A DNA stretch of 64,000 nucleotides. Source: Actinomycetota bacterium. Its GTDB lineage: Bacteria; Actinomycetota; AC-67. Below the pieces are notes generated by a model. It did not search any database. It was not told where the DNA came from and saw only the letters and a program-made list of their open reading frames with translations. Positions 4,610 to 63,491 of the stretch are shown piece by piece. The DNA lies in contig DASWJS010000014.1 of the NCBI GenBank assembly GCA_036397035.1, forward strand, positions 36,014 to 100,013, written 5' to 3'. The position numbers and the translations under genes are program-made. Every line of letters begins with the position of its first letter. Within the stretch, counting starts at the first letter, position 1.

Positions 4610-4612
4610 CGT

Positions 4613-8951: not shown

Positions 8952-8972
8952 CAGTCGGTCACACCCACTCCC

Positions 8973-22226: not shown

Positions 22227-22230
22227 GACG

Positions 22231-23693: not shown

Positions 23694-23697
<4 letters not shown>
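22231..23697 (-). CDS. nuoN: NADH-quinone oxidoreductase subunit N
   Basis: 488 aa from MSVPIQATPE... (FKVGAVPFHMWTPDVYQGAPT). ATG overlaps the nuoM stop (ATGA). The upstream part of the 926-aa track ORF is frame artefact. Confidence 0.9.
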
Positions 23698-27169
<3,472 letters not shown>

Positions 27170-27173
<4 letters not shown>

Positions 27174-27514: not shown

Positions 27515-28059
<545 letters not shown>

Positions 28060-28077
28060 GCTCCCCCCTTTCGCTTC

Positions 28078-28629: not shown

Positions 28630-29798
28630 CCCCTCCGCAGCGGGTTCAGGACCCGCGGGTCGAGCGTGCCGAAGCGGCGGCGCGTGATCACCGTCATCCA
28701 GCCCAGGAACGCGACGCCGAAGGCGATCGCGGTCGCGGCGCCGAGCGTCGCGCGGTCCACCTCCTGCGGCAGCACGACGAGCGCCGAGGTGACCATCATC
28801 CACGCGAGCGAGAACGGCAGCAGCACCTTCCAGCCGAAGCGCATCAGCTTGTCGTAGCGGATGCGCGGGAGCGTCGCGCGCACCCACATGAACACGAAGA
28901 TCATCGCGCCGAGCTTGCCCAGGAACCACACGACCGGCCACAGCGGCCGCAGGAACGGCAGGACGGGGCCGCGCCATCCGCCCAGGAACAGCGTCGTGAC
29001 GATGGCGGACGTCGCGATCACGTGCAGGTACTCGGCGAGGAAGAACATGGCGAACTTGATGCCGGAGTACTCGGTGTGGAAGCCGGCGACCAGCTCGGTC
29101 TCGGCTTCCGGCAGGTCGAAGGGCGCACGGTTCGTCTCGGCGAGCCCGGCGACGAAGAAGATGACGAACGCCGGCAACTGCGACAGGACGAACCAGTGCG
29201 GGACGATCCCGCCGTAGGCGCCCGCTTGCGCATCGACGATCCCGCGCGTGGACAGCGTGCCGGCCTGGATCACGACCGCGACCACCGCCAGGCCCATCGC
29301 CAGCTCGTAGGAGATCATCTGCGCGCTCGACCGCACCCCGCCGAGCAGCGGGTAGACGCTGCCGCTCGACCAGCCGGCGAGGACGACGCCGTAGACCATC
29401 AGGCTGCCCATCGCCAGAAAGAACAAGATGCCGACGTTCAGGTCGGCGAGCTGGAGTCGGATCACGCGCTCGCCGATCGTCCAGGTGTCGCCGAAGGGCA
29501 CGACGGCGAACGAGGCGAACGCGGGGACGAGAGCCGCTAGCGGCGCGATGAAGTACACGCCGCGCTCGGCCGCGAGCGGGTTGATGTCCTCCTTGAAGAA
29601 CAGCTTCACGCCGTCGGCGAGCGCCTGGAGCATGCCCATCGGGCCCACGCGGTTCGGGCCGATGCGCTGCTGCATGATCGCGACGACGCGACGCTCGGCC
29701 CAGATGGTGAACATCACGCTGACGAGCAGGAAGCCGAACACCACGACGACCTTGATGGCGGCGATCAGGATCTCCCAGCCGTCGAAGGGTTGCGTCAT
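28626..29798 (-). CDS. nuoH: NADH-quinone oxidoreductase subunit H
   Basis: 390 aa from MTQPFDGW... ([39 protein letters not shown]). ATG at 29798 overlaps the nuoG stop. Confidence 0.9.
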
Positions 29799-32114
29799 GC
29801 GCCGCTCTCCGGCTCGATCTCGACGACCGGGAACGGGTCGTCGAGCGACAGTAGCGCGCGCACGTCCATGCCCGCCTGGTTCGACGGGACGAGCACGCAG
29901 CCGTCCGCGATCCCCTCGTCGACGACGGCGGGCCCGGCCACCGCGCCCAGGCGCGCGCGCGCGCGGATCCGCGCTCCGTCCGACACGCCGCGCGCGCGCG
30001 CCGACGCCGGACTGAGGCCGATCCGAGGCCCGGGCGCGGTGTGCGCCAGCAGGTCCGACCCGGCCATGAGCGTGCCCTGGTCGATCAGGTCGTCCACGAC
30101 CACCAAGCGCGTGTCCTTGCCCGGGGCGCCCGCCGCCCACGGGTCCAGCGCGACCGCGGGCCCGCGCTCGGCGCGCAGCGCCGCCATCTCGCGCGCCAGC
30201 GTTCGCTCGTCCGGGAAGCCGCGCCCGAACGCTTCGGCGACGTGGCGCAGGATCGTGGCGGTCGTGTCGGCGAGACCGGGCGGCGGGATCGAGCCGCGCA
30301 GGCTCGCGCGCGTTCCCTCCCACGTCGTCACCGTCCCGTCCCGCTCGAACGAGGAGGCCGCCGGCAGGACCACGTCGGCCATCCGCGAGGAAGCGGTGAG
30401 GAACATGTCCAGCGCGACGACGAACCCGGCGCCGTCGATCGCGCGCGAGCCGAGCGACGCGTCCGGCACGGCGGTCACCGGGTCGGCGCCTGCCAGGAAG
30501 AGCACCTCCGGCGACGCGGCCGCCATCGATCGCAGACCGCCGCCGGCGCCGGACGGGAGCGGCCCCCACACGGCCTCGGCGGCGGCCACAGCGGCGGCCA
30601 CAGCGTCCGCCCGGACGCCGCCGGGCAGCAGCGCCGGGTGCAGGCCCGCTTCGATCGCGCCGCGGACGCCGGAGGCGCGCGGGATCCAGCCGAACCGCCC
30701 CTGAAGCTCAATCGCCAGGTTCCACGCGGCCGTCAACGCGCCGGGGGAAGCGGCAAGCCGCTCGCCGGTGAGCACGACCGCCGCGCCGGCCGCGCCGGAC
30801 AGCTCGGCCGCGAGCGCGGACAGCACCGCCGCCTCGCCGCCGGGCGCGCAGGGCAGCCAGGCGCCGGCGAGCCGCGTTCGCCGCGGACCGACCTCGATGA
30901 TGTGCGTGCCGCGTTCGCGGGCGGCCTTCCGCGCCCGCAGGTAGACGATCGGCGCGTCCTGGTGCAGGTCGATGCCCGCCACGATGATCGCGCGCGCGGC
31001 GTCGACGTCCGCGTAGGTCGCCGTCTCGGTCCGAGGGAGCGCTGCGAGGACGGGGGTCTCCTCCTCGCTCGGCGCAGGCCGGAGCGTGTCGACCTCGTTC
31101 GTCCCGAGCACCGTGCGCGCGAAGCGCGACAGCGCGAACGCGTCCTCGTCCGCCAGGTGCCGTCCGGCGAGCACGGCGGTGCGTCCCCCGTTGCCGTTCG
31201 CGGCGCGCAAGCGCTCCGCGATCGCGTCGAGCGCCTCCGTCCAGCTCACCGCGACGAAGTCGTCGCCCTTGCGAACGAGCGGCTCGGTCACGCGATCCGC
31301 GTGAGCCACGAACCCGGTCCCCCAGCGGCCCTTGTCGCAGATCCACGCGTCGTTCACCGCGCGATCCTCGCGCGCCAGCACCCGGACCAGCTCGCCCCGC
31401 CGCGTCTGCACGTCGATCGCGCAGCCGCTCGCGCAGCGCGTGCAGGTGCTCGACGTCGTGACCACGTCGAAGGGCCGCGCGCGGAAGCGATAGTCGGTCG
31501 CGGTCAGCGCGCCGACCGGGCAGATCTGCACGACGTTGCCGCTGAAGATGCTCTCGTAGGGCTCGTCTTCGCTGATCGAGACCTGCTCCAGCGCGCCGCG
31601 CTCGAACAGCTCGATGAACGGGTCGCCGGAGATCTGGTCGGCGAACCGCGTGCAGCGCGCGCACAGCACGCAGCGCTCGCGGTCGAGCTTGATCTGCTCG
31701 GAGATCGGAATCGGCTTGGTGAACCGGCGCTTGGCGTCCACGTAGCGCGAGCCGCCCGGGCCGTACGCGAGCGCTTGGTCCTGCAGCGGGCACTCGCCGC
31801 CCTTGTCGCACATCGGGCAGTCGAGCGGGTGGTTGATCAGCAGCAGCTCCAGCACGCCGCGCTGTCCGTCCTGCGCGATCTCGCTCGTCGCCTGGGTCTT
31901 GACCACCATGCCCTCGGTGCACGTCGTCGTGCAGGACGTGAGCGGCTTGCGCTGGCCCTCGACCTCGACCAGGCACTGCCGGCACGCGCCGAGCGGGTCG
32001 AGCATCGGGTGGTCGCAGAAGCGCGGCACGTAGATGCCGAGCCGCTCGGCCGCTCGTATGACGAGCGTCCCCTCGGGGACCGTGATCTCGCGCCCGTCGA
32101 TCGTGAGCGTGACC

Positions 32115-32125
<11 letters not shown>
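29795..32125 (-). CDS. nuoG: NADH-quinone oxidoreductase subunit G (75 kDa)
   Basis: 776 aa. N-terminal 2Fe-2S and 4Fe-4S Cys motifs ([42 protein letters not shown]) followed by a molybdopterin-like domain. Confidence 0.9.
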
Positions 32126-33391
<1,266 letters not shown>

Positions 33392-33395
<4 letters not shown>

Positions 33396-33993
33396 CGCTC
33401 GTCCCCTTCCACGGCGCCGGCCATCTCGCGGTTGATCGCGCCGAAGTCCAGCGGCGCCGACCCGCGCGCGGCCGGGGGCGGATCCCCGCCCGCCGCCAGG
33501 ACCTCGACGAGCGCGACCGCGTCGTCCACGCTCATCCGCTCGTAGTTGTCGTAGTTGACGCTGAAAACCGGCGCGGCGTCGCACGCACAGAGGCACTCGA
33601 CCTCCTCGACGCTCACGACGTCGCCGTCCAGCCCGCGAACGCGCTCGAACAAGTCGCCGCCGCCGGCCAGGGCGCACGACGGCTGCGTACACACGCTGAC
33701 GAGCCACCGCCCCTGCTTGGTCCGCTTGAACATCGTGTAGAAGGTCGCGACCGCCTGCACCTCCGCGCGCGTCAGTCCGAGCAGCGCGGCGATCGCGTCC
33801 ATCGCCTGCACCGAGACGAACCCGTGCTCGCCCTGGGCCAGGTAGAGCAACGGCAGCAGCGCGCTGCGCGCCCGGCCCTCGGGGTATCGCCCGACGATCG
33901 CGCGCGCGCGCTGGTGGAACGCCTCGGACAGCGGCGCGACCTCATCGGCGGCGTGCGGGCCGCGGCGCTCGGTGTCGAACACGCCGGCGCTCA
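33392..33993 (-). CDS. nuoE: NADH-quinone oxidoreductase subunit E (24 kDa)
   Basis: ~200 aa from GTG overlapping the nuoD stop. Thioredoxin-like 2Fe-2S motifs (CTQPSCALAGG ... ECLCACDAAP). The N-terminal part of the 494-aa track ORF is artefact. Confidence 0.8.
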
Positions 33994-35271
33994 CCGGTCG
34001 ACGCCTCCCATCACCGGGTCGAGGCTCGCGACGGTGGCGATGACGTCGGCGAGCAGCCCGCCGCGCACCATCACCGGCATCGCCTGGAGGTTCACGAAGC
34101 TCGGGTCGCGCGTGTGCACGCGCCACGGCTTGTTCGTCCCCGTCGACACGACGTGGTAGCCCAGCTCGCCCCGCGGGGACTCGACGGGCACGTACACCTC
34201 GCCGGCGGGCACCTTGAACCCCTCGGTGACGAGCTTGAAGTGGTGGATGAGCGCCTCCATCGACTCGCCCATGATCGTGCGGATGTAGCCGGGGTCGTTG
34301 CCGAGGCCGTCGTGCCCGAGCGTGAGCCGCGCCGGCCAGGCGATCTTCGGGTCGTCCACCATGACCGGGCCGCCCGGCAGCCCGTTCGCGACCTGCTCGA
34401 CGATCTTCAGCGACTCGCGCATCTCGGCGATGCGCACGCGGTAGCGCGCGAGGCAGTCGGCCGCGTCGTCGGTCGGCACGTCGAAGTCGTACTGCTCGTA
34501 GCCGCAATACGGCGCCTGCTTGCGCAAGTCGTGCGGCACGCCCGCCGCGCGCAGCAGCGGTCCCGTCACGCCCAAGCCGAGCGCCGTCGACGCGTCCAGG
34601 ATCCCGATGCCCCGGTTGCGCTCGATCCAGGTCGGGTTGTCGGTGAGCAGCGTCTCGTACTCGTCGAGGCGCGCGGGGAACAGCTCGACGAACTCCTTGA
34701 TCTTCTCGATGCTGCCGTCGGGCAGGTCCGTCGACAGGCCGCCGGGCCGGACGTAGGCGTGGTTCATCCGCAAGCCGGTGACGTGCTCGAAGATGTCCAG
34801 GATCAGCTCGCGCTCGCGGAAGCCGTAGAGCATCACGCTGAGCGCGCCCAGCTCCATCCCGCTCGTCGCCAGCCACACCAGGTGCGAGGAGATCCGGTTC
34901 AGCTCGCCGAGCATCACCCGGATCGCCTGCGCGCGCGCCGGCGCCTCGATCCCGAGCAGCCGCTCGACCGCGAGGCAGTAGCCCAGCTCGTTGTGGAACG
35001 GCGCGAGGTAGTCCATGCGCGTGACGAAGGTGACCCCCTGCGTCCAGTTTCGGACCTCGGCGTTCTTCTCAATCCCGGTGTGCAGGTAGCCGACGACCGA
35101 ATGCGCGTTCACGACCGTCTCGCCGTCCAGCTCGAGGACGAGCCGCAGCACCCCGTGTGTGGAGGGGTGCTGCGGCCCCATGTTCACGATCAGCGTGTCG
35201 TCGTCGGTGCGCGCGTGGAGCGTCTCCCAGTCGCGCCCGCCGAGGAAGACCTCGTTCTCGGCGACGCTCAC
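33991..35271 (-). CDS. nuoD: NADH-quinone oxidoreductase subunit D
   Basis: ~426 aa from GTG at 35271 (GTGA overlap with the nuoC stop). [29 protein letters not shown]. Confidence 0.9.
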
Positions 35272-35822
35272 GAGAGCCTCCCCGGGTAGCCCGAGGTCGT
35301 GGAGGGCTGGCCGCGCCGGTCCGGCGGCGGCACGAACGCGCCGCGATAGGCGACGTCGGTCCCGCCGAGCGGGTAGTCCTTGCGCTGCGGATGGCCGTCC
35401 CACTCGTCGGGCATGAAGATGCGCCGAAGGTCCGGGTGGCCGTCGAAGCGGATCCCGAAGAAGTCGAACATCTCGCGTTCGAGCGCGTCGGCGCCCGCCC
35501 ACACGCCGGTCAGCGACGGGCAATGCTCGTCGCCCTGCGGGATGAAGACGCGGACGCGGACGCGCGCCGGGTGGCGCACCGACGCCAGGACCGCGGCGCA
35601 CAGGAAGCGGCGCTCCGGCGGCTCCACGCCCAGGTAGTCCACCGCGCTCCAGTCGGCGAGCAGCTCGAAGGGCCCCTCGTCCCGCAGATAGGCAACGACG
35701 TCGCGCAGGCCGGTGCGCGCGACCTCGATCGAGGTCTCGCCGAACGCCTCCTCGGGCTCGGAGACGACTTCGGGAAAACGTTCACGAACTCCGGCGAGGA
35801 CGTCCAGCAGCGCGGCCGGCAT
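35268..35822 (-). CDS. nuoC: NADH-quinone oxidoreductase subunit C
   Basis: 184 aa with [21 protein letters not shown]. Confidence 0.85.
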
Positions 35823-35825
35823 GGG

Positions 35826-36305
<480 letters not shown>

Positions 36306-36743
36306 CTACGCCCCGATCCTTTCGGCCGCGCGCGCCTGGGCCATCAAACGGTCGCTGACCGCGCGGCGAGCCGACGGCGCTTCCTCTTCCCAGTCGAACG
36401 CCCCGCCGCGCCAGAGGTAGACGTAGGCCACGAGCAGCAGCGCGACGAACACGCCCATCTCCACCAGGCCGAACAGGCGCAGCTCGCGCAGGATCACGGC
36501 GAACGGATAGAAGAAGATCACCTCGACGTCGAAGATGATGAACAGCATCGCGACCAGGTAGAACTTGATCGGGAAGCGCTCCCGCGGGAGCCGCTCGGGC
36601 ACGATCCCGCACTCGTAGGGCTCCAGCTTGGTGGGGTTGGGGTTGTGCGGTCCGACCTTGGAGGCGACCCAGATCGAGGCCGCCCCGAACAACGTGGACA
36701 GCCCCAGCAACAACGCGATCGGCAAGTAGTCCGACAGAGCCAA
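36306..36743 (-). CDS. nuoA: NADH-quinone oxidoreductase subunit A
   Basis: 145 aa (YECGIVPERLPRERFPIKFYLVAMLFIIFDVEVIFFYPFAV) with a ~25-aa C-terminal extension. Confidence 0.85.
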   Translation of the reverse strand: MALSDYLPIALLLGLSTLFGAASIWVASKVGPHNPNPTKLEPYECGIVPERLPRERFPIKFYLVAMLFIIFDVEVIFFYPFAVILRELRLFGLVEMGVFVALLLVAYVYLWRGGAFDWEEEAPSARRAVSDRLMAQARAAERIGA

Positions 36744-41631: not shown

Positions 41632-41760
41632 CGACGACCTCCGTTCACGCGTGCGTTCCTGGATGAGCGTAAGCGCGGCCCCGAGCAGGAGCAACGCGAC
41701 GGCTGGACACCGTGGACGCGCCGATGCTCGCCACCTGTCGCGCCGATAGGCTCGGGAGCC

Positions 41761-44669: not shown

Positions 44670-44675
44670 GACGCC

Positions 44676-46403: not shown

Positions 46404-46443
46404 TGCGTGGCGTCCTTTCGTAGCGCGGCGGCCGGCGAAACCG

Positions 46444-48228: not shown

Positions 48229-48235
48229 CGCGCTC

Positions 48236-51786: not shown

Positions 51787-51832
51787 AGGGTACGGCCCCC
51801 AACCGGCGAGCGCGACACGGGGCCGGGGCGGC

Positions 51833-52705
51833 CTACACGGGCGGGATGAACAGGCTGTTCAGCCACGACTGGACCGGGCCCATGACCCGCGCCCACTGGT
51901 CGGTGACGAGCAGCACGCCGATCGCGATCATGAACACGCCGCCGACGGCCTGGATGAGCCGCGTGCGCCTGCGCAGCCACGCCGCCGCCTGCAGCGCTCG
52001 CTTGGTCCCGATCCCGGCCAGCAGGAACCAGATGCCGAAGCCGAGCGAGAAGAAGAACGTGAGCAGCGCGCCCTTCAGGACCGTTCCCTCCACGACGCCG
52101 AGCGTGAGGATGATGCCGAGCCCCGGTCCCACGCACGGCACCCAGCCCATCCCGAAGGCGAGCCCCAGCGGGAACGCGCCGGCGAGCCCCGGACGCACGC
52201 GCTCCATGAAGGGACGTCGCTCGACCTCGAGGAAGCGCAGGAACGGGGGGGCGAAGAACGCCAGGCCCATCAGGATCACGATCACGCCCGCGATGCGAAA
52301 GAGCAGCGACAGGTTCTCGTTCAACGCGCCGCCGATGCCGCTGGCGACCGCGCCGAGCGCGGTGAAGATCACGGCGAACCCGAGCACGAACAGCCCCGTC
52401 CCGGCCAGGACGCGGTGGCGCGAACGCTCCGAGGCCAGTTCCTCGCCGCTGATGCCCGAGACGAACGTCAGGTACCCGGGGAGCAGCGGCAGCACGCACG
52501 GCGAGAAGAAGCTCACCATGCCCACGACGAACGCGACCACGAACCCGGTCGGACCGAGCAGCGCCCCCTGGATCTGCTCGTCCGGCAGCGCCCAGGCGAC
52601 GACCGCGATGAACGCGGCGACGCCGGCCGCGACGCCGGCCACCCAGGCCGGCACGAGCCACCAGCGCGCTCGCGCCGCGGTTCGCGGCGTCTCCACCTGC
52701 GTCAC
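51833..52705 (-). CDS. ccdA: cytochrome c biogenesis thiol-disulfide transporter CcdA (DsbD core)
   Basis: 290 aa with 6 TM helices and two conserved Cys-containing helices (FFSPCVLPLLP and GWVPCVGP). Confidence 0.8.
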   Translation of the reverse strand: MTQVETPRTAARARWWLVPAWVAGVAAGVAAFIAVVAWALPDEQIQGALLGPTGFVVAFVVGMVSFFSPCVLPLLPGYLTFVSGISGEELASERSRHRVLAGTGLFVLGFAVIFTALGAVASGIGGALNENLSLLFRIAGVIVILMGLAFFAPPFLRFLEVERRPFMERVRPGLAGAFPLGLAFGMGWVPCVGPGLGIILTLGVVEGTVLKGALLTFFFSLGFGIWFLLAGIGTKRALQAAAWLRRRTRLIQAVGGVFMIAIGVLLVTDQWARVMGPVQSWLNSLFIPPV

Positions 52706-53250
52706 GCCAGCTCCGCGTCAAGGATCCGGGCCATGTCGTCCTCATCTTGCAACGCGCCGATCACGTATGCCGCGATGCGGCCCTCGGCGTCGATCACGTA
52801 GGTCGCCGGCATGAACCGCACACCGAAGGCGAAGGCGAGCGCGGAGTCGGGGTCGTAGATCGACGGGTAGGTCACGTCGAACTCGTCAAGGAACGCAAGC
52901 GCCGCCGCGCGCTGGTCCCTGCGCGTGTCGATGCCGACGAACCGCACGCCACGCGACTCGTACCGCCGCCACAGCGCCTCGAGCCGCGGCTGCTCCTCGC
53001 GGCAGGGCCCGCACCACGACCCCCAGAAGTTGACGACGGCGACAACGCCGTCCAGCTCGCCGGGCTCCACCCGCGGCGGTCCCTCGGTGAGCCGCTCGCC
53101 CTCGACGACCGGCGCCGCCGTGCGCTCGGCGACCGGGACGGCCACCACGTTGCCCGGGCCGGCGGCGACCTGGATGCCCCCCCCGCCCCCGCCCGGCGCG
53201 CACGAAACGGCGAGCAAGACGACGGCGACGACGGCGCGCGCGAGGAGCAT
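52702..53250 (-). CDS. resA: thioredoxin-like thiol:disulfide oxidoreductase ResA/TlpA
   Basis: 182 aa from MLLARAVV (signal anchor) with WCGPC active site. Start/stop overlap with ccdA. Confidence 0.8.
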   Translation of the reverse strand: MLLARAVVAVVLLAVSCAPGGGGGGIQVAAGPGNVVAVPVAERTAAPVVEGERLTEGPPRVEPGELDGVVAVVNFWGSWCGPCREEQPRLEALWRRYESRGVRFVGIDTRRDQRAAALAFLDEFDVTYPSIYDPDSALAFAFGVRFMPATYVIDAEGRIAAYVIGALQDEDDMARILDAELA

Positions 53251-53319
53251 CGCACCGACTGTAGCGCCGCGGGCGAGCCGCCGGAGCGCGCCCCCGGAAC
53301 GGTGTGTCAGGATGACGGC

Positions 53320-53868
53320 GTGCGCGCGCTCGCCGTTGTCGTCGCATTCGCCGTCGCCGGGACGGCGTGCTCGCCCAACCCGCCGGAGGCGTTGCCGCCG
53401 TGCACGGCGGACTCGCTGATCAGCCTGGGTCAGAAGATCCCGGACTGCTCGTTCGAAGGAATCGGCGGGCGGCCGGATGTGCGGCTCTCGGCCTACGCGG
53501 GAAGGCCGCTCGTGCTCAACTTCTGGGCGTCCTGGTGCGCCGCGTGCATCAAGGAGATGCCCGATATCGACGCCGTCGCGACGGAGCTCGAGGGAAGGGT
53601 CGCCTTCGTCGGCATGAACATGCTCAGCGTGCAGGGCGAGACGCGCGTCGCGGCGGAGCGGTTCGCCGATCGCACCGGCGTCGCCTACGACCTCGCGTTC
53701 GACGAGGAAGGGCGGCTGTACGCGCATTTCGGGAACGTGCTGCGACCGCTGCTGCCGACGACCGTGTTCGTCGACGCCGAGCAGCGGGTGGCACGCTACA
53801 AGTTCGGCGAGTTCGCCTCCGCCGCGGAGGTGCGCGCGGCCGTCGAGGACGCCTTCGGCGTCCGGTAG
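53320..53868 (+). CDS. TlpA-like thioredoxin-fold lipoprotein (second paralog)
   Basis: 182 aa from GTG at 53320 (AGGA 8 nt upstream). Signal with AVAGTAC lipobox-like end and WCAAC active site. Divergent from resA across a ~70-bp intergenic region. Confidence 0.65.
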   Translation: MRALAVVVAFAVAGTACSPNPPEALPPCTADSLISLGQKIPDCSFEGIGGRPDVRLSAYAGRPLVLNFWASWCAACIKEMPDIDAVATELEGRVAFVGMNMLSVQGETRVAAERFADRTGVAYDLAFDEEGRLYAHFGNVLRPLLPTTVFVDAEQRVARYKFGEFASAAEVRAAVEDAFGVR

Positions 53869-53956
53869 CGCACGAGTTCACGTTCCCCGTTTTGCACGGT
53901 GGCGACCGGCGGTCGATAATCGGATGAGGCAGGCAGGCCTTTGTTTTGGGACTGCC

Positions 53957-53974
53957 TTGTGAACAAGATCACAA
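53957..53974. promoter_or_regulatory. perfect CRP/GlxR-type palindrome TTGTGA-N6-TCACAA
   Basis: Sequence ttgtgaACAAGAtcacaa is a perfect 6-6-6 inverted repeat matching the CRP-family consensus TGTGA-N6-TCACA. A TATAAT hexamer lies at 54022-54027, about 85 nt before the GTG of the first gene of the Rieske/cytochrome b operon. Confidence 0.5.
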
Positions 53975-54058
53975 GCCCGGAGGGGCACCCGGTGCTTGAT
54001 ATGGCTTCGACAGGGCACACGTATAATCGCCCGCGTTGGAGGGGGAGGCCGCAGGTTC

Positions 54059-54466
54059 GTGAACTTCACGATCGATCCGCTCAGCCCGGCTCTGCTCATC
54101 GTTTCCGAGGCCATCTACCTCGGAATCGCGGGCGCGATGCTGGTCGGAAGCATGAAGATCAAGAACGAGTGGGTGAAGGCATCGGTCGCCGGGCTCGGGA
54201 TCTCGATCATCGGCTGGCACCTCCTGGCGATCCTGCCGAGCTGGTGGCTCTACTTCGCCGAGGGCGAGCTGGGCATGGGCGGCCAGGGGTGCGTGAAGCT
54301 CGACCTCTCGTGCTTGAAGCAGACCGTGAAGGACAGCGTGGTCGTGGTCGAGAACGCGGTCGTGCTGGGCCTGTTCGTCGTGGCGTTCGTCATCTACCAG
54401 AAGAAGAACCCGCGGCAGCTCGCATCCGGCGAGACCAAGCCCGAAGCCACGGGAGGCTACAAGTGA
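54059..54466 (+). CDS. hypothetical small membrane protein (first gene of qcr-like operon)
   Basis: 135 aa from GTG at 54059 (GGAGG 10 nt upstream) with 3-4 predicted TM helices. No family recognised. Confidence 0.45.
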   Translation: MNFTIDPLSPALLIVSEAIYLGIAGAMLVGSMKIKNEWVKASVAGLGISIIGWHLLAILPSWWLYFAEGELGMGGQGCVKLDLSCLKQTVKDSVVVVENAVVLGLFVVAFVIYQKKNPRQLASGETKPEATGGYK

Positions 54467-54491
54467 CGCGGCCGAAGGCGGGCGGTGAGCG

Positions 54492-54839
54492 ATGAGCGCC
54501 ATCAGCAACAAGCCGCAGTTTTACGACGAGTACGACCTCAAGATCGTCGATCCGAACTGGCTCCAGCAGCGCGTCAAGCCGAAGCGGCACATCGGCCTGG
54601 AAGCGGACCTGTGCATCCTGTGCCGCGCGTGCGAGGACGTCTGCCCGTGGGACTGCATCTACATGCTCTCCGGTGAGATCGTCGCCGACGCGGACAGCGC
54701 GGCGATCCGCGACCAGTCGGGGAACGCCGCGGCCGTGTTCGTCATCGACGACACCGAGTGCACGCGGTGCGGCATCTGCGTGGACCGGTGTCCGTCGGAC
54801 GCGCTGTTCTACATGACCGTCGGGGACCGAGCGAAGTAA
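54492..54839 (+). CDS. 2[4Fe-4S] dicluster ferredoxin
   Basis: 115 aa with two C-x2-C-x2-C-x3-CP motifs ([12 protein letters not shown] and [12 protein letters not shown]). Confidence 0.8.
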
Positions 54840-54850
54840 GGCGGGGGGAC

Positions 54851-55636
54851 GTGGCCAAGGACCAGAAACCACTCGTAACCGAGCGCCTGGAGCTTCTGAA
54901 GGAGAAGACCCAGGACTCGCAGGTGTGGAAGTCGATCTTCCGGCCCGGTTCGTACCTGCGCAAGGGCTACCGCGACACGTCGCGCGACCGCGCGCTGGCC
55001 ACGATGAACAACGTGCTCTACCACCTGCACCCGGTGAAGGTGAAGCGGCACGGGCTGAAGCTCACCTACACGTTCTGCCTGGGCGGCCTGTCGTTCTTCC
55101 TGTTCACGATCCTGACCATCACCGGCATCTACTTGATGTTCTACTACCGGCCGGCCGTGGACCTGCAGTCCGCCGCGGTCTACGCCGACATGCAGGACCT
55201 GTCCCAGGCGATCACGTTCGGGCAGCTCGTTCGCAACATGCACCGCTGGGCGGCGCACCTGATGGTGTTCACGGTGTTCCTGCACATGGCGCGCGTCTTC
55301 TACCACGGCGCCTACAAGCCCCCGCGGGAGTTCAACTGGGTGATCGGCGTGAACCTGCTGCAGATCACGCTGCTGCTTTCCTTCACCGGCTACCTGCTGC
55401 CGTGGGACCAGCTCGCGATCTGGGCCGTCACGGTCGGGACGAACATGATGGGCTACACGCCGGTGTTCGGTCGCCAGGTGAAGTTCGTGCTCGTGGGCGG
55501 CTTGGAGGTGGGGCCGCCGACGCTCATCCGCTGGTACGTGCTCCACGTCCTTGCGCTGCCGTTCATCGCCGTGCTGCTGATGGCCGTCCACTTCTGGCGC
55601 ATCCGCAAGGACGGCGGGATCAGCGGTCCGCTGTAA
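54851..55636 (+). CDS. petB/qcrB: cytochrome b6-type (N-terminal cytochrome b domain, split cytochrome b)
   Basis: 261 aa from GTG at 54851 (GGGGGG Shine-Dalgarno). 4 TM helices with bis-His pairs ([23 protein letters not shown] and [16 protein letters not shown]) and a PWDQ motif. Stops after helix D, like b6. Confidence 0.8.
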
Positions 55637-55645
55637 GAGGAAGCC

Positions 55646-56488
55646 ATGGCCGACGAAGAGATAGGGATAGTCCAGGAGGTCTTCGACAAGGCCCTCGCCG
55701 AGGGCAAGTCGGAGCGGGAAGCGCGCGCGCTCGCGAAGTCGGCATGGGTGCGCAAGACCCGCGGCAAGGCCGGCCCCGGCGAGAAGAAGGCGGCCGCGGC
55801 GGAAGCGGCGGCGCCTGAAGCCGCTCCCGCGGAAACGGCGCCGGCCGGAGCGGCACCCGCGGCGGCGAGCGGGGCGCCCACGGCAACCGCCGTCCAGGAA
55901 CGTCTGACGCCCGAGCAGCGCGCGGCGCGGGTCGCCGCGGCCACGGGACGGACCGCAACCACCAACGGCGGCGGGGGGCGCGGCACCGGCGCGGGCGAGA
56001 CCCACCGGCTGCTCGCGGTCGTCCCGCCCGAGGGCATCCAGCGCACGGTCAAGCGGCAGGACGACAAGGTCAACGTCTGGCCGCACCTGCTGGCGGCCGA
56101 GCTGCTCTCGCTGCTCGTGTGCATGGTGTTCCTGCTGGTCTTCTCCACCTTCAAGGACGCGCCCTTCCGCGAGCTGGCGAACCCGAGCCTCACGCCGAAC
56201 CCGTCCAAGGCGCCGTGGTACTTCCTGGGGTTGCAGGAGCTGCTCCGCTACTTCCACCCGATGGTCGCCGGCGTGACCATCCCCGGGCTCGGGCTGTTCG
56301 CGCTCATGGCGCTGCCCTACGCGGACAAGAACCCGAGCATGAAGCCCGAGCGACGCAAGCTCGCGGTCATCATCTTCACGATCTTCATGATGTTCTGGTG
56401 CGTGCTGGTCATCCTCGGCGTGCTGTTCCGTGGACCCGGCTACAACTTCATCTGGCCCTGGAACTCCGGCGTGTTCTTCGATCTATAG
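55646..56488 (+). CDS. petD/qcrC: cytochrome b C-terminal domain (subunit IV-like) with long Ala/Pro-rich N-terminal extension
   Basis: 280 aa. C-terminal 3 TM helices carry the PEWY-region equivalent (NPSKAPWYFLGLQELLRY). The first ~140 aa are low-complexity Ala/Pro/Glu-rich. Confidence 0.7.
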   Translation: MADEEIGIVQEVFDKALAEGKSEREARALAKSAWVRKTRGKAGPGEKKAAAAEAAAPEAAPAETAPAGAAPAAASGAPTATAVQERLTPEQRAARVAAATGRTATTNGGGGRGTGAGETHRLLAVVPPEGIQRTVKRQDDKVNVWPHLLAAELLSLLVCMVFLLVFSTFKDAPFRELANPSLTPNPSKAPWYFLGLQELLRYFHPMVAGVTIPGLGLFALMALPYADKNPSMKPERRKLAVIIFTIFMMFWCVLVILGVLFRGPGYNFIWPWNSGVFFDL

Positions 56489-56491
56489 GGA

Positions 56492-57235
56492 ATGGTGAGG
56501 ACGATGCTGGCGGTAAGCACCACGACGTGGGTCCTGATAGGAATCTTCGTTCCCTTCATCCTTGCCGGCCTCGGGCTCGCGGCGATCAACGTCGCCTCGA
56601 TCGTCCGTCCGCGGCACGCGGGCGAGTCGGGACCGCCCCAGCCCCTGATCGGCCCGCCGTCGCAGATGACGCGGCGCGGCTTCTTCCGCAAGGTCATGGG
56701 CGCGGGCTTCGGGCTCGCGGCGCTGGAGGGCTTCGGGCTGGGAAGCCTGGCGTTCCTGTGGCCCGACCTGTCCGGCGGCTTCGGCGGGGAGATCACCCTC
56801 GGGACCTCGGCCGCGGACATCAAGTCGGAGATCCGCGCGACGAAGAAGCCCTTCTACTACGCGCCGGGCCGGTTCTACCTGGTCGAGTACGACGCGGCGA
56901 GCAACGACGGCACGTACGAAGAGGGCCTGATCGCCGAGGGGCTGATGGCGCTGTACCAGCGCTGCGTGCACCTCGGCTGCCGGGTCCCGTTCTGCGAGGC
57001 GTCCCAGTGGTTCGAGTGCCCGTGCCACGGCTCGAAGTACAACCGCGCGGGGGAGTACCGGCTGGGTCCCGCGCCGCGCGGGCTCGACCGCTTCCCCATC
57101 GCCTCCGAGGACGGGCGGCTCGTGGTGAACACCGGGATCATCATCACCGGGCCGGTTCGGGGCACGAACACGACCGGGCAGCAGCCCGAGGGGCCGTTCT
57201 GCGTGGACCCGGCGATCATCGCGGAAGAGGCCTGA
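56492..57235 (+). CDS. qcrA/petC: Rieske [2Fe-2S] iron-sulfur subunit (Tat signal)
   Basis: 247 aa with a twin-arginine motif ([20 protein letters not shown]) and Rieske boxes (CVHLGCRV and CPCHGSKY). Confidence 0.85.
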
Positions 57236-57239
57236 CGGG

Positions 57240-58166
57240 ATGCTCAGGGGGGACGTGTTGATTCCACTCGCTGTCGACCAGCGCGTGACGACCGCGCTCG
57301 TCGTCGCGGGCGGCATCGCCCTGTTCGTGCTGCTGCTGGTCATGTCGGCCTCGGGCGAGCTGCGCGGCCGGCGCACGGCGAAAGTTCCGCCGTCTATGCG
57401 CCCCGGGCCCTCCGACGAGGCGCTCGAGAAGCGCGTCATCACCAACTATCTGGCCTGGGGCGGCGCGGCGACGATGCTCATGGCCCTGTGGCTGCCCGCG
57501 TACTGGCTCCGCGAGCCGACGCGGCTCGCCGACGCGGAGAGCCGTTTCGTCGAGCGCGAAGTGACCGAAGGCGCGCACCTCTACGAGGAGTTCCAGTGCG
57601 TCACCTGCCACGGCAAGGCCGGCAGCGGCGGGGTACAGCCGCTCGTGATCAACGGCGTGTCGCGCAACATGGCCGAGCCGCCGCTGCGCTACATCTACTC
57701 GCGGTACACCGCTTCCGGGCGGACCGAGGAAGAGATCACGCAGCTCATCTACGACGCGATCAACCGGGGACGGCCGGGCACGCCGATGCCGACGTGGTCG
57801 CTCGCCTTCGGCGGGCCGCTCAACTCGGCGCAGATCGACAACCTGGTCGTGTACCTGCAGGACATCCAGGAGGACTTCCCCGCGGCCGACCCCGACGCGA
57901 AGGGCAGAGAGCTGTTCGAGGCGAACTGCGCCATCTGTCACAACGGGCTCGACGACGAGGGCAAGGCGACGATCACAGGCGCGGGCGGCGTGGGTCCGAA
58001 CCTCACGGTGGCGTTCGAGCGGCTGAGCCGCGCGGAGGTTGAGGCGGTCATCCGCAAGGGGCGCCTGAACACCAACCGGCCCTCGATGCCCTCGTGGGAA
58101 GCGCTCGGCGACGACGCGATCGAGGCCCTGGTCCGCTTCATCCAGAGCATTCAGAGGAGTTCGTGA
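57240..58166 (+). CDS. qcrC: dihaem cytochrome c subunit
   Basis: 308 aa with an N-terminal TM anchor and two CxxCH motifs (CVTCHG and CAICHN). Confidence 0.8.
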   Translation: MLRGDVLIPLAVDQRVTTALVVAGGIALFVLLLVMSASGELRGRRTAKVPPSMRPGPSDEALEKRVITNYLAWGGAATMLMALWLPAYWLREPTRLADAESRFVEREVTEGAHLYEEFQCVTCHGKAGSGGVQPLVINGVSRNMAEPPLRYIYSRYTASGRTEEEITQLIYDAINRGRPGTPMPTWSLAFGGPLNSAQIDNLVVYLQDIQEDFPAADPDAKGRELFEANCAICHNGLDDEGKATITGAGGVGPNLTVAFERLSRAEVEAVIRKGRLNTNRPSMPSWEALGDDAIEALVRFIQSIQRSS

Positions 58167-58954
58167 TGACCGCCTTCGCCGAACTGGTCCCGCTCGCCTG
58201 CGACGGCTGCTTCAAGGGTTACCCGGCCGTCATCTCGCTCGTCATCATCGTGCTCGCCTTGATCGGCGGCATCTACATGCTCCTGGCGTCGAACTTCGGC
58301 GCGCGCCAGGGCTACCTGATCACGATGGTGTCGCTGTCGGCGCTCATGCTGATCATGTCGCTGATCTGGCTTCTCGGCGCGCCCGGCACGACGCCGGCGA
58401 CCGGCCCGCGCGGTCGCGAGCCCGCCTGGGTCCCCTTCCTGCCCGATAGCGACCAAGCGGCCGGCTTCGCGGCCGAGCTCGACGCCTTCCCGGCGGGGTG
58501 GGACGCGCCCGGAACGATCTATCCCGGCATGATCGACTCGACCGGCGAGGTCCAGACCGTCCGCACCGCGATCAGGGCGGCGATGGCGAACCTGCACACC
58601 GTCAACGAGCTGGACGCCGTCGAGCCGGCGGACTGGGAGTTCAGGCTGCCGGGCGCGCCGGCCGTGAGCGACGCCGACCGCGAGAAGCCGGTCGCGGAGG
58701 CTCGCTACGTCCAGACCGGCAACACGTTGCTGTTCGGCGTGACCATCCCCGCCACCGACAAGCACGGCGAGGTCACCGTCTTCGCCTACCGCGACAAGGG
58801 GCTGGTCTTCCTCTACGCGCTCTACTTCTTCCTCGTCAGCCTGATCGGCTTCGTCGTGCACCTGTGGCTGCTCGCACGGTTCGAGAAGAAGCAGAAGGCG
58901 CGCGACGCCCAGATGGAGAGCCGCACCCAGGTCCAGGCGCCCGCGCCGGTCTGA
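58166..58954 (+). CDS. hypothetical membrane protein (last gene of qcr-like operon)
   Basis: 262 aa from ATG at 58166 overlapping the cytochrome c stop (GTGATGA). 3 TM helices (two N-terminal, one C-terminal) around a soluble middle domain. Confidence 0.5.
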   Translation: MTAFAELVPLACDGCFKGYPAVISLVIIVLALIGGIYMLLASNFGARQGYLITMVSLSALMLIMSLIWLLGAPGTTPATGPRGREPAWVPFLPDSDQAAGFAAELDAFPAGWDAPGTIYPGMIDSTGEVQTVRTAIRAAMANLHTVNELDAVEPADWEFRLPGAPAVSDADREKPVAEARYVQTGNTLLFGVTIPATDKHGEVTVFAYRDKGLVFLYALYFFLVSLIGFVVHLWLLARFEKKQKARDAQMESRTQVQAPAPV

Positions 58955-58963
58955 GCCCGCGCC

Positions 58964-59578
58964 TCACGCCGGCGCGTGCTGTCTGATCCACTCGTGCATG
59001 GCGATGCCGCTCGCCACGCCCGCGTTGATCGATCGCGTCGAGCCGAACTGGCGAATCGAAAGAACCAGGTCGCACGCGGCCGCGGCGGCCTCGCTCAGCC
59101 CCGGGCCCTCCTGGCCGAACAGGAACACGCACGCGCGCGGAAGGCTCGTCCGGTCGATCGCCGCCGACCCGGGCAGGTTGTCGACGCCGAGCACGGGCAG
59201 GCCGGCCCGCCGAGCCCATTCGACGAAAGCGTCGATCGTGTCGTGGTGCTCGACGTGCTGGTAGCGGTCGGTGACCATCGCGCCGCGCCGGTTCCACTTC
59301 CTGCGCCCGACCACGTGTACGGCGCTCGCGAGGAACGCGTTGGCGTTGCGCACGACCGTGCCGATGTTGAGGTCGTGCTTCCAGTTCTCGATCGCGACGT
59401 GAAAGGGATGCCGGCGCTCGTCGAGATCGGCGACGATCACCTCGGTGCGCCAGTAGCGATAGCCGTCGACGACGTTGCGCGCGTCGCCGCGGGCGAGCAG
59501 ATCGGGGTCGAGCCGCTCGTCCTCGGGCCACGGACGCGGGTGCGGCCCGACCCCGACCTCCCGCTCGCCGGTCACGGC
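58964..59578 (-). CDS. SpoU/TrmH-family RNA 2'-O-methyltransferase
   Basis: C-terminal ~200 aa of the track ORF (SPOUT fold). Probable GTG start overlapping the hemL stop. The rest of the 432-aa track ORF is artefact. Confidence 0.6.
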   Translation of the reverse strand, partial: AVTGEREVGVGPHPRPWPEDERLDPDLLARGDARNVVDGYRYWRTEVIVADLDERRHPFHVAIENWKHDLNIGTVVRNANAFLASAVHVVGRRKWNRRGAMVTDRYQHVEHHDTIDAFVEWARRAGLPVLGVDNLPGSAAIDRTSLPRACVFLFGQEGPGLSEAAAAACDLVLSIRQFGSTRSINAGVASGIAMHEWIRQHAPA

Positions 59579-60852
59579 CCCGCTGCCGCGCGCATCGCCG
59601 GCTCGATCGCATCGGCGGTTCGCGCGACGTCGTCGTCGCCGTGCGCGGCCGACAGGAACCACGCCTCGAAGGCGCTCGGCGGGAGCAGAACGCCGCGATC
59701 GAGCATCGCGTGGAAGAACCGCGCGAACGCCTCTGCGTCCTGGGCGCGCGCGCCGGCCGCGTCCGTCACCGGTCCCGCGGTGAAGAAGGCCGAGAAGAGC
59801 GAGCCCTCGCGGTTCACGCGCAGCGCGACGCCCGCGCGCGCGGCCGAGTCCTCGAGGGCCCGGCACAGCGTCCGCGCGCGCTCCTCCATCGCTTCCCACG
59901 GCGGGCTCGCCGAGAGCGCGTCGAGCACGGCGAGCCCCGCCGCGACCGCGACCGGGTTCCCGCTCAGCGTCCCCGCCTGATAGACCGGCCCGTCCGGCGC
60001 CAGGAGCTCCATGATCGAGGCTCGCCCGCCGACGGCGGCCAGCGGCAGTCCGCCGCCCACGACCTTCCCGAGGCACGTCAGGTCGGGCATCACGCCGAAT
60101 CGTTCTTGCGCGCCGCCGCGCCCGAGCCGGAAGCCGGTGATCACCTCGTCGAAGACCAGGAGCGTGCGGTGCTCGTCGCAGAGCGAACGCAGGCCCGCGA
60201 GGAAGCCATGAGCGGGCGGCACGACGCCCATGTTCGCCGCGGCCGGCTCGATGATCACGCACGCGACCTCGTAGGCGGCGAGGACCGTTCCCACGGCCTC
60301 GAGGTCGTTGTAGGGAAGCACGAACGTGTCGCGGGCGCTCCCCTCCGTCACGCCCGGCGAGCCGCCGATGCCCAGCGTCGCCACGCCCGAGCCCGCGCCC
60401 GCGAGCATCGCGTCGGCGTGCCCGTGGTAGCAGCCGTCGAAGCGCACGAGCGCCGCGCGTCCGGTCGCCGCCCGCGCCAGTCGCACGGCGGTCATCGCCG
60501 CTTCCGTCCCGCTGCTCACCAGGCGCACGCGCTCCAGCGAGGGCACCGCGCCGATCAGACGCTCGGCCAGCAGCAGCTCCGCCTCGTGTGGCGCGCCGAA
60601 GGTCGTCCCGCGGCGCGCGGCGGCCTCGACGGCGCGCACGACCGACGGCGCCGCGTGACCCAGGATGATCGCGCCCCAGGACATCACGTAGTCGATCAGC
60701 TCGGCGCCGTCGGCGTCGGTCACGCGCGAGCCCGACGCCGAGGCGATCCAGCGCGGCGTGCCGCCCACGGCGCGGTAGGCGCGCACCGGCGAGTTGACGC
60801 CGCCGGGCATCACGTCGCGCGCGCGCTTGAACAGCTCGTCCGACCGGCTCAT
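59572..60852 (-). CDS. hemL: glutamate-1-semialdehyde 2,1-aminomutase
   Basis: 427 aa from MSRSDELFKRARDVMPGGVNSPVRAY..., with the PLP-lysine region VFDEVITGFRLG...TCLGKVVGGG. Confidence 0.85.
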   Translation of the reverse strand: MSRSDELFKRARDVMPGGVNSPVRAYRAVGGTPRWIASASGSRVTDADGAELIDYVMSWGAIILGHAAPSVVRAVEAAARRGTTFGAPHEAELLLAERLIGAVPSLERVRLVSSGTEAAMTAVRLARAATGRAALVRFDGCYHGHADAMLAGAGSGVATLGIGGSPGVTEGSARDTFVLPYNDLEAVGTVLAAYEVACVIIEPAAANMGVVPPAHGFLAGLRSLCDEHRTLLVFDEVITGFRLGRGGAQERFGVMPDLTCLGKVVGGGLPLAAVGGRASIMELLAPDGPVYQAGTLSGNPVAVAAGLAVLDALSASPPWEAMEERARTLCRALEDSAARAGVALRVNREGSLFSAFFTAGPVTDAAGARAQDAEAFARFFHAMLDRGVLLPPSAFEAWFLSAAHGDDDVARTADAIEPAMRAAAGP

Positions 60853-60952
60853 CGGTCTCCAGCCTACGCGCGGAGGGGCTCGGCCAAGGCCTCGGGCCGG
60901 CGGCGTCTCAGCCCGGCCGTCCACGACTGTGGCGCCTCGCCCGGGTGGTGCC

Positions 60953-61942: not shown

Positions 61943-61950
61943 CGCCCAGC

Positions 61951-63483: not shown

Positions 63484-63491
63484 GCCCGCGC

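Follow-up and report, generated by a model that had tools for sequence, protein, structure and literature searches.

A conserved seven-gene Rieske/cytochrome b module of Actinomycetota with a putative ferredoxin-type cytoplasmic subunit

Composition, conservation, and placement of the module

The APWY clade delineated by Kao & Hunte in 2014 comprises split cytochromes b with a CxGG motif, no member of which had been characterised (PMC4122944). Its sequences belong to delta-Proteobacteria, Chloroflexi, Nitrospirales, Planctomycetes, Symbiobacterium/Thermaerobacter, and Actinobacteria, the latter including Ilumatobacter coccineum (PMC4122944). Short cytochromes b that co-occur with large NAD(P)-binding iron-sulfur (FeS) proteins have separately been grouped as 'subfamily G' by Dibrova et al (PMC5600118), and a large FeS/NAD(P) oxidoreductase subunit is known from the Rieske/cytochrome b complexes of anammox bacteria (PMC5600118, PMC12954380). 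We take the APWY clade and subfamily G to be the same group, an equation of our own, because of the APWY motif, the CxGG motif, and the co-occurrence with FeS/NAD(P) proteins. Here, we describe a related module in a 64,000-nucleotide stretch of an Actinomycetota genome (assembly GCA_036397035.1, contig DASWJS010000014.1, positions 36,014 to 100,013), hereafter called the window. Seven consecutive open reading frames (ORFs) on the plus strand (54059-58954) encode, in this order, a small membrane protein (memA), a 2[4Fe-4S] ferredoxin, a cytochrome b6-like protein, a subunit IV homologue, a Rieske protein, a cytochrome c, and a second membrane protein (memB; Table 1). The host is best explained as an uncultured actinobacterium close to Nitriliruptoria.

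Comparison of the window's cytochrome b6 with species-representative genomes returned at least 597 related stretches, the best 80 of which were examined by tblastn with the window proteins and, for the fast-diverging memA and memB, with iterated hidden Markov models (HMMs). All 80 loci belong to Actinomycetota (Nitriliruptoraceae, Egibacteraceae, Microthrix, Ilumatobacteraceae, other Acidimicrobiia, and many unclassified metagenome-assembled genomes, MAGs), and their gene order is identical wherever sequence is available. The ferredoxin gene lies directly 5' of cytochrome b6 in 79/80 loci, the lone exception being cut at the contig end, and it is immediately preceded by a memA orthologue in 78 of the 80. 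Subunit IV, Rieske, and cytochrome c genes come after cytochrome b6 wherever the sequence continues, and of the 67 loci with a detected cytochrome c, 63 have a memB orthologue immediately 3' of it. A cultured Nitriliruptoria isolate, Salsipaludibacter albus, carries the same seven genes in the same order. Cytochrome b6 identity across these actinobacterial classes amounts to 67-93%, which indicates strong constraint. Thus, the module is a conserved seven-gene operon of early-branching actinobacteria. A preliminary description of the locus had allowed that the ferredoxin and the two membrane proteins might accompany the complex by chance; since the same order is kept in related Actinomycetota loci, their association is not incidental.

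The cytochrome b6-like protein and the subunit IV homologue are separate ORFs that match PF00033 and PF00032, respectively, in line with the split cytochrome b recognised in that description. Cytochrome b6 contains Cys76 in a CLGG motif and the b-haem ligands His131/145 and His232/247, all of which are present in 80/80 orthologues, and the spacing of 14 residues between the helix D histidines is of the b6 type. The CxGG cysteine is the predicted attachment site of a covalent haem cn. The N-terminus forms a conserved, basic segment of ~70 residues (pI of the first 72 residues, 10.3) with an HLHP motif; the underlying W.S.FR...LHLHP pattern is clade-wide, and His58 of HLHP is invariant in 13 diverse clade members. 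At the C-terminus, a WRIRKDGG motif is conserved. We considered the N-terminal extension as a mark of ferredoxin-bearing complexes and rejected it: being found clade-wide, also in members with a large oxidoreductase and in armless ones, it is not diagnostic.

The quinol oxidation (Qo) motif of subunit IV reads APWY (residues 189-192, context KAPWYFL), and PEWY or PDWY is absent. The same motif is found in 71/71 orthologous subunit IV proteins, so that the replacement of the Qo glutamate, initially suspected from the window sequence, holds throughout and no normal PEWY exists elsewhere in the protein. Subunit IV consists of a short conserved N-terminal helix, a variable linker of ~100 residues rich in Ala, Gly, Thr, Pro, and Glu, and three transmembrane (TM) helices, and it contains a conserved Glu152. 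The Ala/Pro/Glu-rich N-terminal extension noted earlier is real, as the composition of residues 41-120 illustrates (28 Ala, 12 Gly, 10 Thr, 7 Pro, and 7 Glu). This extension (55646-56060, residues 1 to ~140) is not uniformly of low complexity, as its N-terminal helix motif is conserved across classes (GKSEREARALAKSAWVR in the window, EIPEHLLKRAQAAREKA in Acidimicrobiia). The Ala/Pro/Glu/Thr-rich linker varies in length and places APWY between residues ~157 and ~279 in full-length orthologues. In alignments with chains of the PDB, subunit IV can be matched to PetD and to the C-terminal halves of cytochromes b; an equivalence of Glu152 with the haem-cn-facing Phe40/Val43 of PetD is possible, manual and HMMER alignments disagreeing at this point.

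The window's cytochrome b core, as judged by these motifs, belongs to the APWY clade, with which it shares the split four-helix cytochrome b with CxGG, the APWY motif of subunit IV, the N-terminal LHLHP segment, and a score above the cut-off of the NCBIfam ExtP model (297.2 bits; cut-off 290). The split cytochrome b in an actinobacterium, the loss of the Qo glutamate, and the probable haem cn are therefore already known features of a named clade, in which Ilumatobacter, a member of Acidimicrobiia, had been placed (PMC4122944). The window differs from this clade in its CLGG sequence, where WCMGG is typical, and in the addition of the ferredoxin, memA, memB, and a dihaem cytochrome c.

The ExtP model takes its name from the Geobacter extHIJKLMNOPQS cluster (PMC5877670). 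In contrast to that cluster, the window lacks ext outer-membrane, multihaem, rhodanese, or selenoprotein genes; specifically, no ext-type genes (porin ExtI, multihaem ExtKLMN, rhodanese ExtH) are found in the operon or its flanks, and the model of the membrane partner ExtQ scores 52 bits against a cut-off of 150. For these reasons, the label 'selenite/tellurite reduction operon cytochrome ExtP', which has been propagated on such proteins, is misleading here. The NCBI prokaryotic genome annotation pipeline assigns the name 'selenite/tellurite reduction operon b-type cytochrome ExtP' to the actinobacterial and Chloroflexota cytochromes b P0021, P0029, P0049, P0099, P0445, P0470, and P0493, whose operons are likewise devoid of any Geobacter ext gene. 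The ExtP equivalog model appears to be too broad.

With the b6f complexes and the Firmicute/heliobacterial b6c complexes, the module shares the split into b6 and subunit IV and the 14-residue histidine spacing in helix D. Its CLGG haem-cn site is identical to the YCLGG core of cyanobacterial b6f, and the nearest solved chains are cyanobacterial and plant b6 (~149 bits); the NCBIfam model PRK03735 for cytochrome b6 gives 198 bits. No member of the APWY clade appeared among the solved structures when PDB chains were searched with cytochrome b6. The module differs from b6f and b6c in its APWY, where those have PEWY or PDWY, in ~40 additional conserved residues at the N-terminus of b6 and ~120 at that of subunit IV, and in a cytoplasmic FeS subunit. 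Moreover, the operon encodes neither cytochrome f nor PetG/L/M/N, as opposed to b6f, and no fusion of subunit IV with cytochrome c of the kind seen in Bacillus QcrC. The QcrCAB (bcc) complexes of Mycobacterium and Corynebacterium come from the same phylum and resemble the module in their membrane-anchored dihaem cytochrome c exit and in a Rieske protein with extra TM helices before the Tat motif. However, the window's cytochrome b is split and distant from QcrB (115 bits against the actinobacterial QcrB cut-off of 500; ~88 bits to the solved mycobacterial and corynebacterial chains), its Rieske protein and cytochrome c reach 28 of 275 bits for QcrA and 38 of 200 for QcrC, and gene order and neighbourhood differ.

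The Rieske protein, identified earlier as a substrate of twin-arginine translocation (Tat), bears a Tat-like RRGFF motif at residue 61 and the motifs CVHLGC at 158 and CPCHGSKY at 176, which are conserved in ~66 of 69 orthologues. Its Rieske box holds both of the hydrogen-bonding, potential-raising residues, Ser181 and Tyr183, which are conserved in the orthologues; boxes with Ser and Tyr go with potentials above 200 mV (PMC12954380, PMC4122944). Residues 1-58 (56492-56665) comprise an extra TM helix before the Tat RR motif, which in turn precedes the signal-anchor helix, and the GC content at third codon positions (GC3) over these first 58 codons is 0.88. The extra helix recurs in many orthologues without conservation of its sequence and is reminiscent of the multi-TM, Sec-plus-Tat-inserted Rieske proteins of other actinobacteria. 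The haem motifs of the cytochrome c are CVTCH at residue 120 and CAICH at 230, in agreement with its initial reading as a dihaem protein. Nitriliruptoria and Acidimicrobiia-type loci share the dihaem form (33 loci, among L002-L080), and a large subclade of unclassified Actinomycetota MAGs has a monohaem form (single CxxCH, ~240 aa; 32 loci). Thus, the electron exit differs within the clade.

The ferredoxin and its relation to NAD(P)-linked arms

The ferredoxin ahead of cytochrome b, correctly read as a 2[4Fe-4S] protein in the preliminary description, displays CxxCxxCxxxCP motifs at residues 41 and 90 and a pI of 4.5. It has no signal peptide and no TM helix, and is therefore predicted to be cytoplasmic. 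Both motifs are present in 78/79 orthologues, and all eight cysteines are kept across classes together with an N-terminal segment of ~35 residues.

An FeS gene upstream of the cytochrome b genes also characterises the NAD(P)-oxidoreductase Rieske/cytochrome b complexes, as exemplified by Kuenenia (Kuste4569-4574 and Kustd1480-1485). We collected further non-actinobacterial contexts from the representatives of an exhaustive HMMER search, followed by a profile search with 13 non-actinobacterial members. Five Chloroflexota-type loci (L081 and L088 from Candidatus Limnocylindria, L082, L083 from Dehalococcoidales, and L085) encode a 621-661-aa GltD-like protein with Fer4_20, Pyr_redox_2 (FAD/NAD(P)), and Fer4_7 domains 5' of the Rieske/cytochrome b genes. 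Four of these loci have this gene immediately before cytochrome b, with a 4-bp overlap in L081, L083, and L088, and there cytochrome b is followed by subunit IV, Rieske, and cytochrome c, as in the window. In L085, the large oxidoreductase precedes the Rieske gene, which itself stands before a fused cytochrome b. The oxidoreductase gene of L082 (4182-5559) is frameshifted: matches to the L081 protein are spread over two frames, and the C-terminal ferredoxin domain is out of frame as well. This could reflect a sequencing error or a pseudogene, and it bears on how the arm could be lost. One further locus of the wider clade, L086, lacks a cytoplasmic arm altogether.

The window's ferredoxin aligns over its full length with the C-terminal ~110 residues of these large oxidoreductases. 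It is 37-38% identical to the C-terminal domain of the Limnocylindria proteins over 71-73 residues, the long insert between the two cluster motifs being free of gaps. Since pairwise similarity does not discriminate between the oxidoreductases and NuoI (see below), we built a family profile from 80 ferredoxin orthologues and used the window's own two NuoI proteins as control targets. With this profile, the C-terminal domain of the Limnocylindria oxidoreductases, which belong to the sister clade, scored 53-62 bits, the L085 oxidoreductase 51, and the Dehalococcoidales oxidoreductase 35, as compared with 25-32 bits for the two NuoI proteins. This gradient parallels the cytochrome b6 tree (neighbour-joining, 223 columns, 100 bootstraps, cyanobacterial b6 as outgroup), in which the ferredoxin-bearing actinobacterial sequences are monophyletic (95) and sister (94) to a Limnocylindria-type clade with the large oxidoreductase. 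Further lineages with a large oxidoreductase branch outside this pair. A tblastn search with the flavoprotein part (the first 520 residues of the L081 protein) gave no match in the window or in the 80 actinobacterial loci, which, unlike the NAD(P)-linked complexes, thus lack the Fer4_20, FAD, and NAD(P) parts.

Taken together, these results are most parsimoniously explained by loss of the Fer4_20/FAD/NAD(P) module in the actinobacterial lineage, in which the membrane-proximal 2[4Fe-4S] domain would have persisted as a 115-aa protein of its own and two membrane proteins would have been added. In single-sequence BLAST, however, the oxidoreductase C-terminal domain (54-55 bits) was not separated from the window's second NuoI-like protein (52 bits), and only the profile set them apart. 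A NuoI-type ferredoxin may thus have been recruited independently into the same position, which we consider less likely.

In addition to the arm at the same position, the Chloroflexota operons share with the module the order of b6, subunit IV, Rieske, and cytochrome c (with the Rieske gene between arm and cytochrome b in L085). The anammox complexes resemble it in a high-potential-type Rieske box, the potentials having been measured in the anammox proteins only (PMC12954380). They differ in that subunit IV has five TM helices in the anammox models and three in the window, and in their multihaem or HAO-like partner, the counterpart of which is here a simple mono- or dihaem cytochrome c.

MemA and memB, for which no family could be named at first, are specific to the actinobacterial module: library scans gave no Pfam or NCBIfam match for either, and counterparts were not detected in the Chloroflexota operons. 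MemA comprises three hydrophobic segments; memB is predicted to have two N-terminal TM helices, a loop domain of ~140 aa, and one C-terminal TM helix. They are best explained as clade-specific supernumerary subunits or assembly factors. A CCB1-like role of memA in haem-cn attachment was considered and dropped, as no Pfam match was obtained at E<=0.01. The N-terminal CxxC of memB (CDGC) was likewise abandoned as a functional lead because it is not conserved. The AlphaFold2 single-sequence model of memB (predicted local distance difference test, pLDDT, 53) was too poor for a fold search.

The suggestion that the locus represents a distinct variant of the Rieske/cytochrome b family with an extra FeS subunit is thus supported, with two qualifications: the split b6, APWY, and CxGG define an already named clade, and an FeS subunit has precedents in anammox bacteria and Chloroflexota. 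What is most likely new is a cytoplasmic arm reduced to a ferredoxin, accompanied by memA and memB, conserved in early-branching Actinomycetota, and apparently derived from the NAD(P)-linked arm of the sister complexes. In the literature, we found no account of an actinobacterial ferredoxin-only module beyond the mention of Ilumatobacter by Kao & Hunte; a prior mention in Dibrova et al 2013 (PMC3839093) is possible.

Proposed function and competing explanations

We consider it probable that the module encodes a complex III equivalent of the APWY/subfamily G type, in which the remnant of a cytoplasmic 2[4Fe-4S] arm serves as a genuine electron-transfer subunit with a dissociable cytoplasmic partner. 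As all parts of a Q cycle are present and conserved, the default function would be quinol:cytochrome c oxidoreduction. The Qo site at which menaquinol is oxidised would be lined by APWY in place of PEWY. From there, one electron would reach the Rieske cluster exported by Tat and then the membrane-anchored dihaem cytochrome c, with a terminal oxidase as the presumed end point, while the other would cross the membrane via the two b haems to a haem cn bound covalently through Cys76 at the cytoplasmic quinone site. The ferredoxin would most likely rest on the basic segments at the N-termini of cytochrome b6 and subunit IV and so connect the cytoplasm with the haem bn/cn end of the low-potential chain. 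This placement near haems bn and cn is suggested by the acidic nature of the ferredoxin and its lack of a signal peptide or TM helix, by the basic N-terminus of cytochrome b6, and by the subunit IV helix on the same side of the membrane. As the likely remnant of an FeS/FAD/NAD(P) oxidoreductase arm that has lost its flavin/NAD(P) module, the ferredoxin may exchange electrons with a dissociable cytoplasmic partner. With a Rieske box of the high-potential type in an organism that presumably uses menaquinone, we slightly favour an output of low-potential electrons. The physical association of the ferredoxin, the electron path, and the quinone type are all inferred.

The anammox complexes offer the sole mechanistic precedent for such an arrangement. 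Their FeS-flavoprotein arm co-migrates with the Rieske/cytochrome b complex (PMC12954380). In AlphaFold3 models, a chain of clusters leads from the cytochrome b dimer to the FAD by way of a predicted extra b haem whose ligand is an N-terminal histidine of each cytochrome b (PMC12954380). His58 of the window protein is a candidate equivalent of this histidine. The anammox Rieske proteins gave measured potentials of +303 and +335 mV; for menaquinol these are unusually high, and they would permit a haem bp potential down to ~-475 mV (PMC12954380).

Several points weigh against the proposed role of the ferredoxin. It is linked to the complex by gene adjacency only. Off-pathway clusters are known from other systems, and retained cysteine ligands are no proof of electron transfer. 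The AlphaFold2 model of the ferredoxin (28-sequence alignment; pLDDT 47) offers no basis for a docking argument. Two apparent ferredoxin-cytochrome b6 fusions, P0292 (401 aa) and P0246 (255 aa), have a garbled or truncated second FeS motif and are likely frameshift or chimera artefacts; other N-terminal extensions of cytochrome b among the 150 representatives of the 50%-identity cluster library that were searched are Rieske fusions. Kao & Hunte raised the possibility that complexes with APWY operate in reverse (PMC4122944). Finally, a role of the module as the main complex III of these actinobacteria is presumed from conservation and context, and the status of canonical qcrCAB in their genomes bears on it: if qcrCAB is absent, the module would fill the 'complex III' slot of early-branching actinobacteria.

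We rank the reading as an electron-transfer subunit, with a slight preference for output, first. Its strong rival, which we nevertheless hold to be rather unlikely, is an ordinary complex III with a normal Q cycle, in which the ferredoxin persists as a vestigial cap or assembly stabiliser without physiological electron flux. The loss of the catalytic flavin/NAD(P) module of the ancestral arm would fit this view, as would the armless L086 within the wider clade. All Q-cycle elements, including the haem-cn Cys76 and the conserved Glu152 of subunit IV, are retained, so that a working cytoplasmic quinone (Qn) site needs no extra acceptor. The eight cysteines and the ~35-residue N-terminal segment are, however, conserved across classes to a greater extent than a cap would need, which is suggestive but not decisive, and the CPCHGSKY box, of the type above 200 mV, is unexpectedly high for a menaquinol Q cycle.

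Another rival is quinol-driven bifurcation, in which the strong pull of the high-potential branch of Rieske protein, cytochrome c, and oxidase on quinol oxidation would make the b-haem branch reducing enough to load the 2[4Fe-4S] subunit, which in turn would reduce a soluble partner such as an FNR-type reductase or an enzyme that depends on ferredoxin. This would be a pared-down version of the scheme put forward for NAD(P)H production by the anammox complexes. In its favour, the ferredoxin shares homology and position with the anammox/Chloroflexota FeS arm, Ser181 and Tyr183 are conserved, the potentials of the anammox homologues (+303/+335 mV) permit a haem bp near -475 mV (PMC12954380), and His58 could correspond to the predicted interfacial-haem ligand that bridges to the arm (PMC12954380). 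We regard this explanation as doubtful nonetheless: genes for a partner enzyme are missing from the surroundings, the quinone type and the potentials are all presumed, low-potential electrons would normally be expected to reach the quinone because the haem-cn/Qn site is retained, and the scheme is unproven even for the anammox complexes. In its broadest form, which appears to us slightly more doubtful still, menaquinone-using aerobic Actinomycetota (Acidimicrobiia, Nitriliruptoria, and relatives) would run quinol-based bifurcation to load a bound 2[4Fe-4S] module, giving a respiration-coupled reductant at the ferredoxin level. The high-potential branch of Rieske protein, cytochrome c, and oxidase would then drive the second electron through unusually low-potential b haems, possibly including a His58 interfacial haem. 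If true, the module would be a minimal natural form of a mechanism that has been proposed, and never demonstrated, for NAD(P)H generation in anammox bacteria.

Electron flow in the opposite direction, from a cytoplasmic ferredoxin or flavoprotein via the FeS subunit and haem cn into the quinone pool, with reverse operation as a variant, seems improbable to us. Such an input would resemble the ferredoxin-dependent reduction of haem cn proposed for cyclic flow in b6f, where this haem has long been discussed as the site at which electrons from ferredoxin enter (PMC5600118), and Kao & Hunte connect APWY with reversed operation via the p-cresol cluster of Geobacter (PMC4122944). Against such an input, the direction from NAD(P)H to quinone was judged wasteful and unlikely for anammox bacteria (PMC12954380), one or two full complex I operons already serve NADH oxidation in these actinobacteria, and the module lies among housekeeping cytochrome c and haem biogenesis genes and not beside a substrate-specific dehydrogenase. 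Just as improbable is a soluble ferredoxin outside the complex, co-transcribed for another purpose such as FeS or haem cofactor delivery during assembly: the absence of a TM segment, the many contexts in which generic NuoI-like ferredoxin folds serve, and memA and memB as conceivable assembly factors would suit it, but across classes its gene keeps its place between memA and cytochrome b6 in 79/80 loci, the N-terminal segment of the ferredoxin shows strong conservation, and the same position in sister lineages holds an arm that co-migrates with the anammox complexes (PMC12954380).

None of the Rieske/cytochrome b complexes of the APWY/subfamily G type, widespread as they are, has been characterised biochemically. 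The proposal that a Q-cycle enzyme can drive electrons uphill onto NAD(P)+ or ferredoxin centres on their cytoplasmic FeS-flavoprotein arm. With no more than two [4Fe-4S] clusters facing the cytoplasm, the actinobacterial module would be the simplest such complex and hence a simple system for asking what the arm does. Its carriers include the environmentally abundant Microthrix, Ilumatobacteraceae, and Nitriliruptoria and at least one aerobic isolate (Salsipaludibacter albus), so that the question can be approached without anammox cultures. I. coccineum is a reported carrier of an APWY-clade cytochrome b (PMC4122944).

Gene layout and genomic neighbourhood

The window genes were cross-checked against the calls of an independent gene caller on a 76.5-kb metagenome contig of the Joint Genome Institute that includes the window (JGI; 3300030620, Ga0302046_10000141). 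These calls correspond to products of 135, 115, 261, 280, 243, 308, and 262 aa, the sole mismatch being the Rieske start, which is placed four codons later than in the window. The coding-frame GC3 of the seven ORFs is 0.87-0.95, typical for a window of 67-72% GC. The start/stop overlaps initially thought to suggest co-translation are confined to one junction, where the TGA of cytochrome c and the ATG of memB share a single base (58166); the remaining junctions are gaps of 3-25 nt, and the genes are tightly packed without generally overlapping. The promoter-like match upstream of memA is the only one in 53700-59300, shuffled sequence giving a mean of 0.3.

Table 1. Coordinates of the seven-gene module, the upstream promoter-like match, and genes of the nuoA-N-like operon in the window
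Feature	Position	Strand	Basis or remark
Sigma-70-like promoter match, TTTGCA-18-GATAAT	53891..53920	+	In 190-bp intergenic region 5' of memA; consensus match only
memA, 135-aa membrane protein, first gene of the module	54059..54466	+	ORF; three predicted TM helices; family unknown
2[4Fe-4S] ferredoxin-like protein, 115 aa	54492..54839	+	Pfam Fer4 families; NuoI-like best NCBIfam match
Cytochrome b6-like protein, 261 aa, four-helix type	54851..55636	+	PF00033, 142 bits; GTG start, likewise in JGI call
Subunit IV homologue, 280 aa	55646..56488	+	PF00032; three TM helices
Rieske [2Fe-2S] protein, 247 aa	56492..57235	+	PF00355
Membrane-anchored dihaem class I cytochrome c, 308 aa	57240..58166	+	PF13442/PF00034 matched twice; N-terminal TM helix
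memB, 262-aa membrane protein	58166..58954	+	ORF; family unknown; no Pfam/NCBIfam match
NuoA	36306..36743	-	
NuoB	35826..36305	-	
NuoD	33991..35601	-	
NuoF	32115..33707	-	
NuoG	29795..32125	-	
NuoL	25206..27173	-	
NuoM	23694..25205	-	

The operon is flanked by System II cytochrome c maturation genes (ccdA, resB, ccsA, and resA) and haem biosynthesis genes. A housekeeping respiratory role is supported by these flanks and by the nuo and menaquinone-type prenyl genes in the window. In S. albus (L084, 1-16759), the module is co-stranded with hemD, hemB, hemL, and a thioredoxin gene upstream and with resA-ccdA-resB-ccsA downstream. The window has the same neighbours (49275-53868 and 58964-63908), relative to which the module is inverted. 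Beside it lie two divergent genes for TlpA/ResA-like thioredoxins (52702-53250, minus strand, and 53320-53868, plus strand).

A complete nuoA-N-like operon occupies 22200-36743 (minus strand; Table 1). It is flanked by genes for a polyprenyl synthase and a MenJ-like geranylgeranyl-reductase flavoprotein (FAD_binding_3/GGR_cat; 21258-22226 and 40381-41769, both minus strand), which would fit a partly saturated menaquinone as the respiratory quinone. Menaquinone use would also be expected from general knowledge of these classes. A second, partial nuo cluster (738-9440, minus strand) encodes a NuoH-like protein (5683-6690), a divergent 193-aa NuoI-like protein (5104-5682), and a NuoM/N-like protein (738-2264).

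Between the nuoA-N-like operon and the module, a sulfate activation/sulfation cluster (41566-48288) comprises a fused ATP sulfurylase/APS kinase (44676-46403, minus strand), a CitMHS/TrkA-C anion transporter (46444-48288, minus strand), and a sulfotransferase (41566-42777, plus strand). A further gene at 38187-40313 encodes a 708-aa protein with a beta-propeller domain (PF09826).

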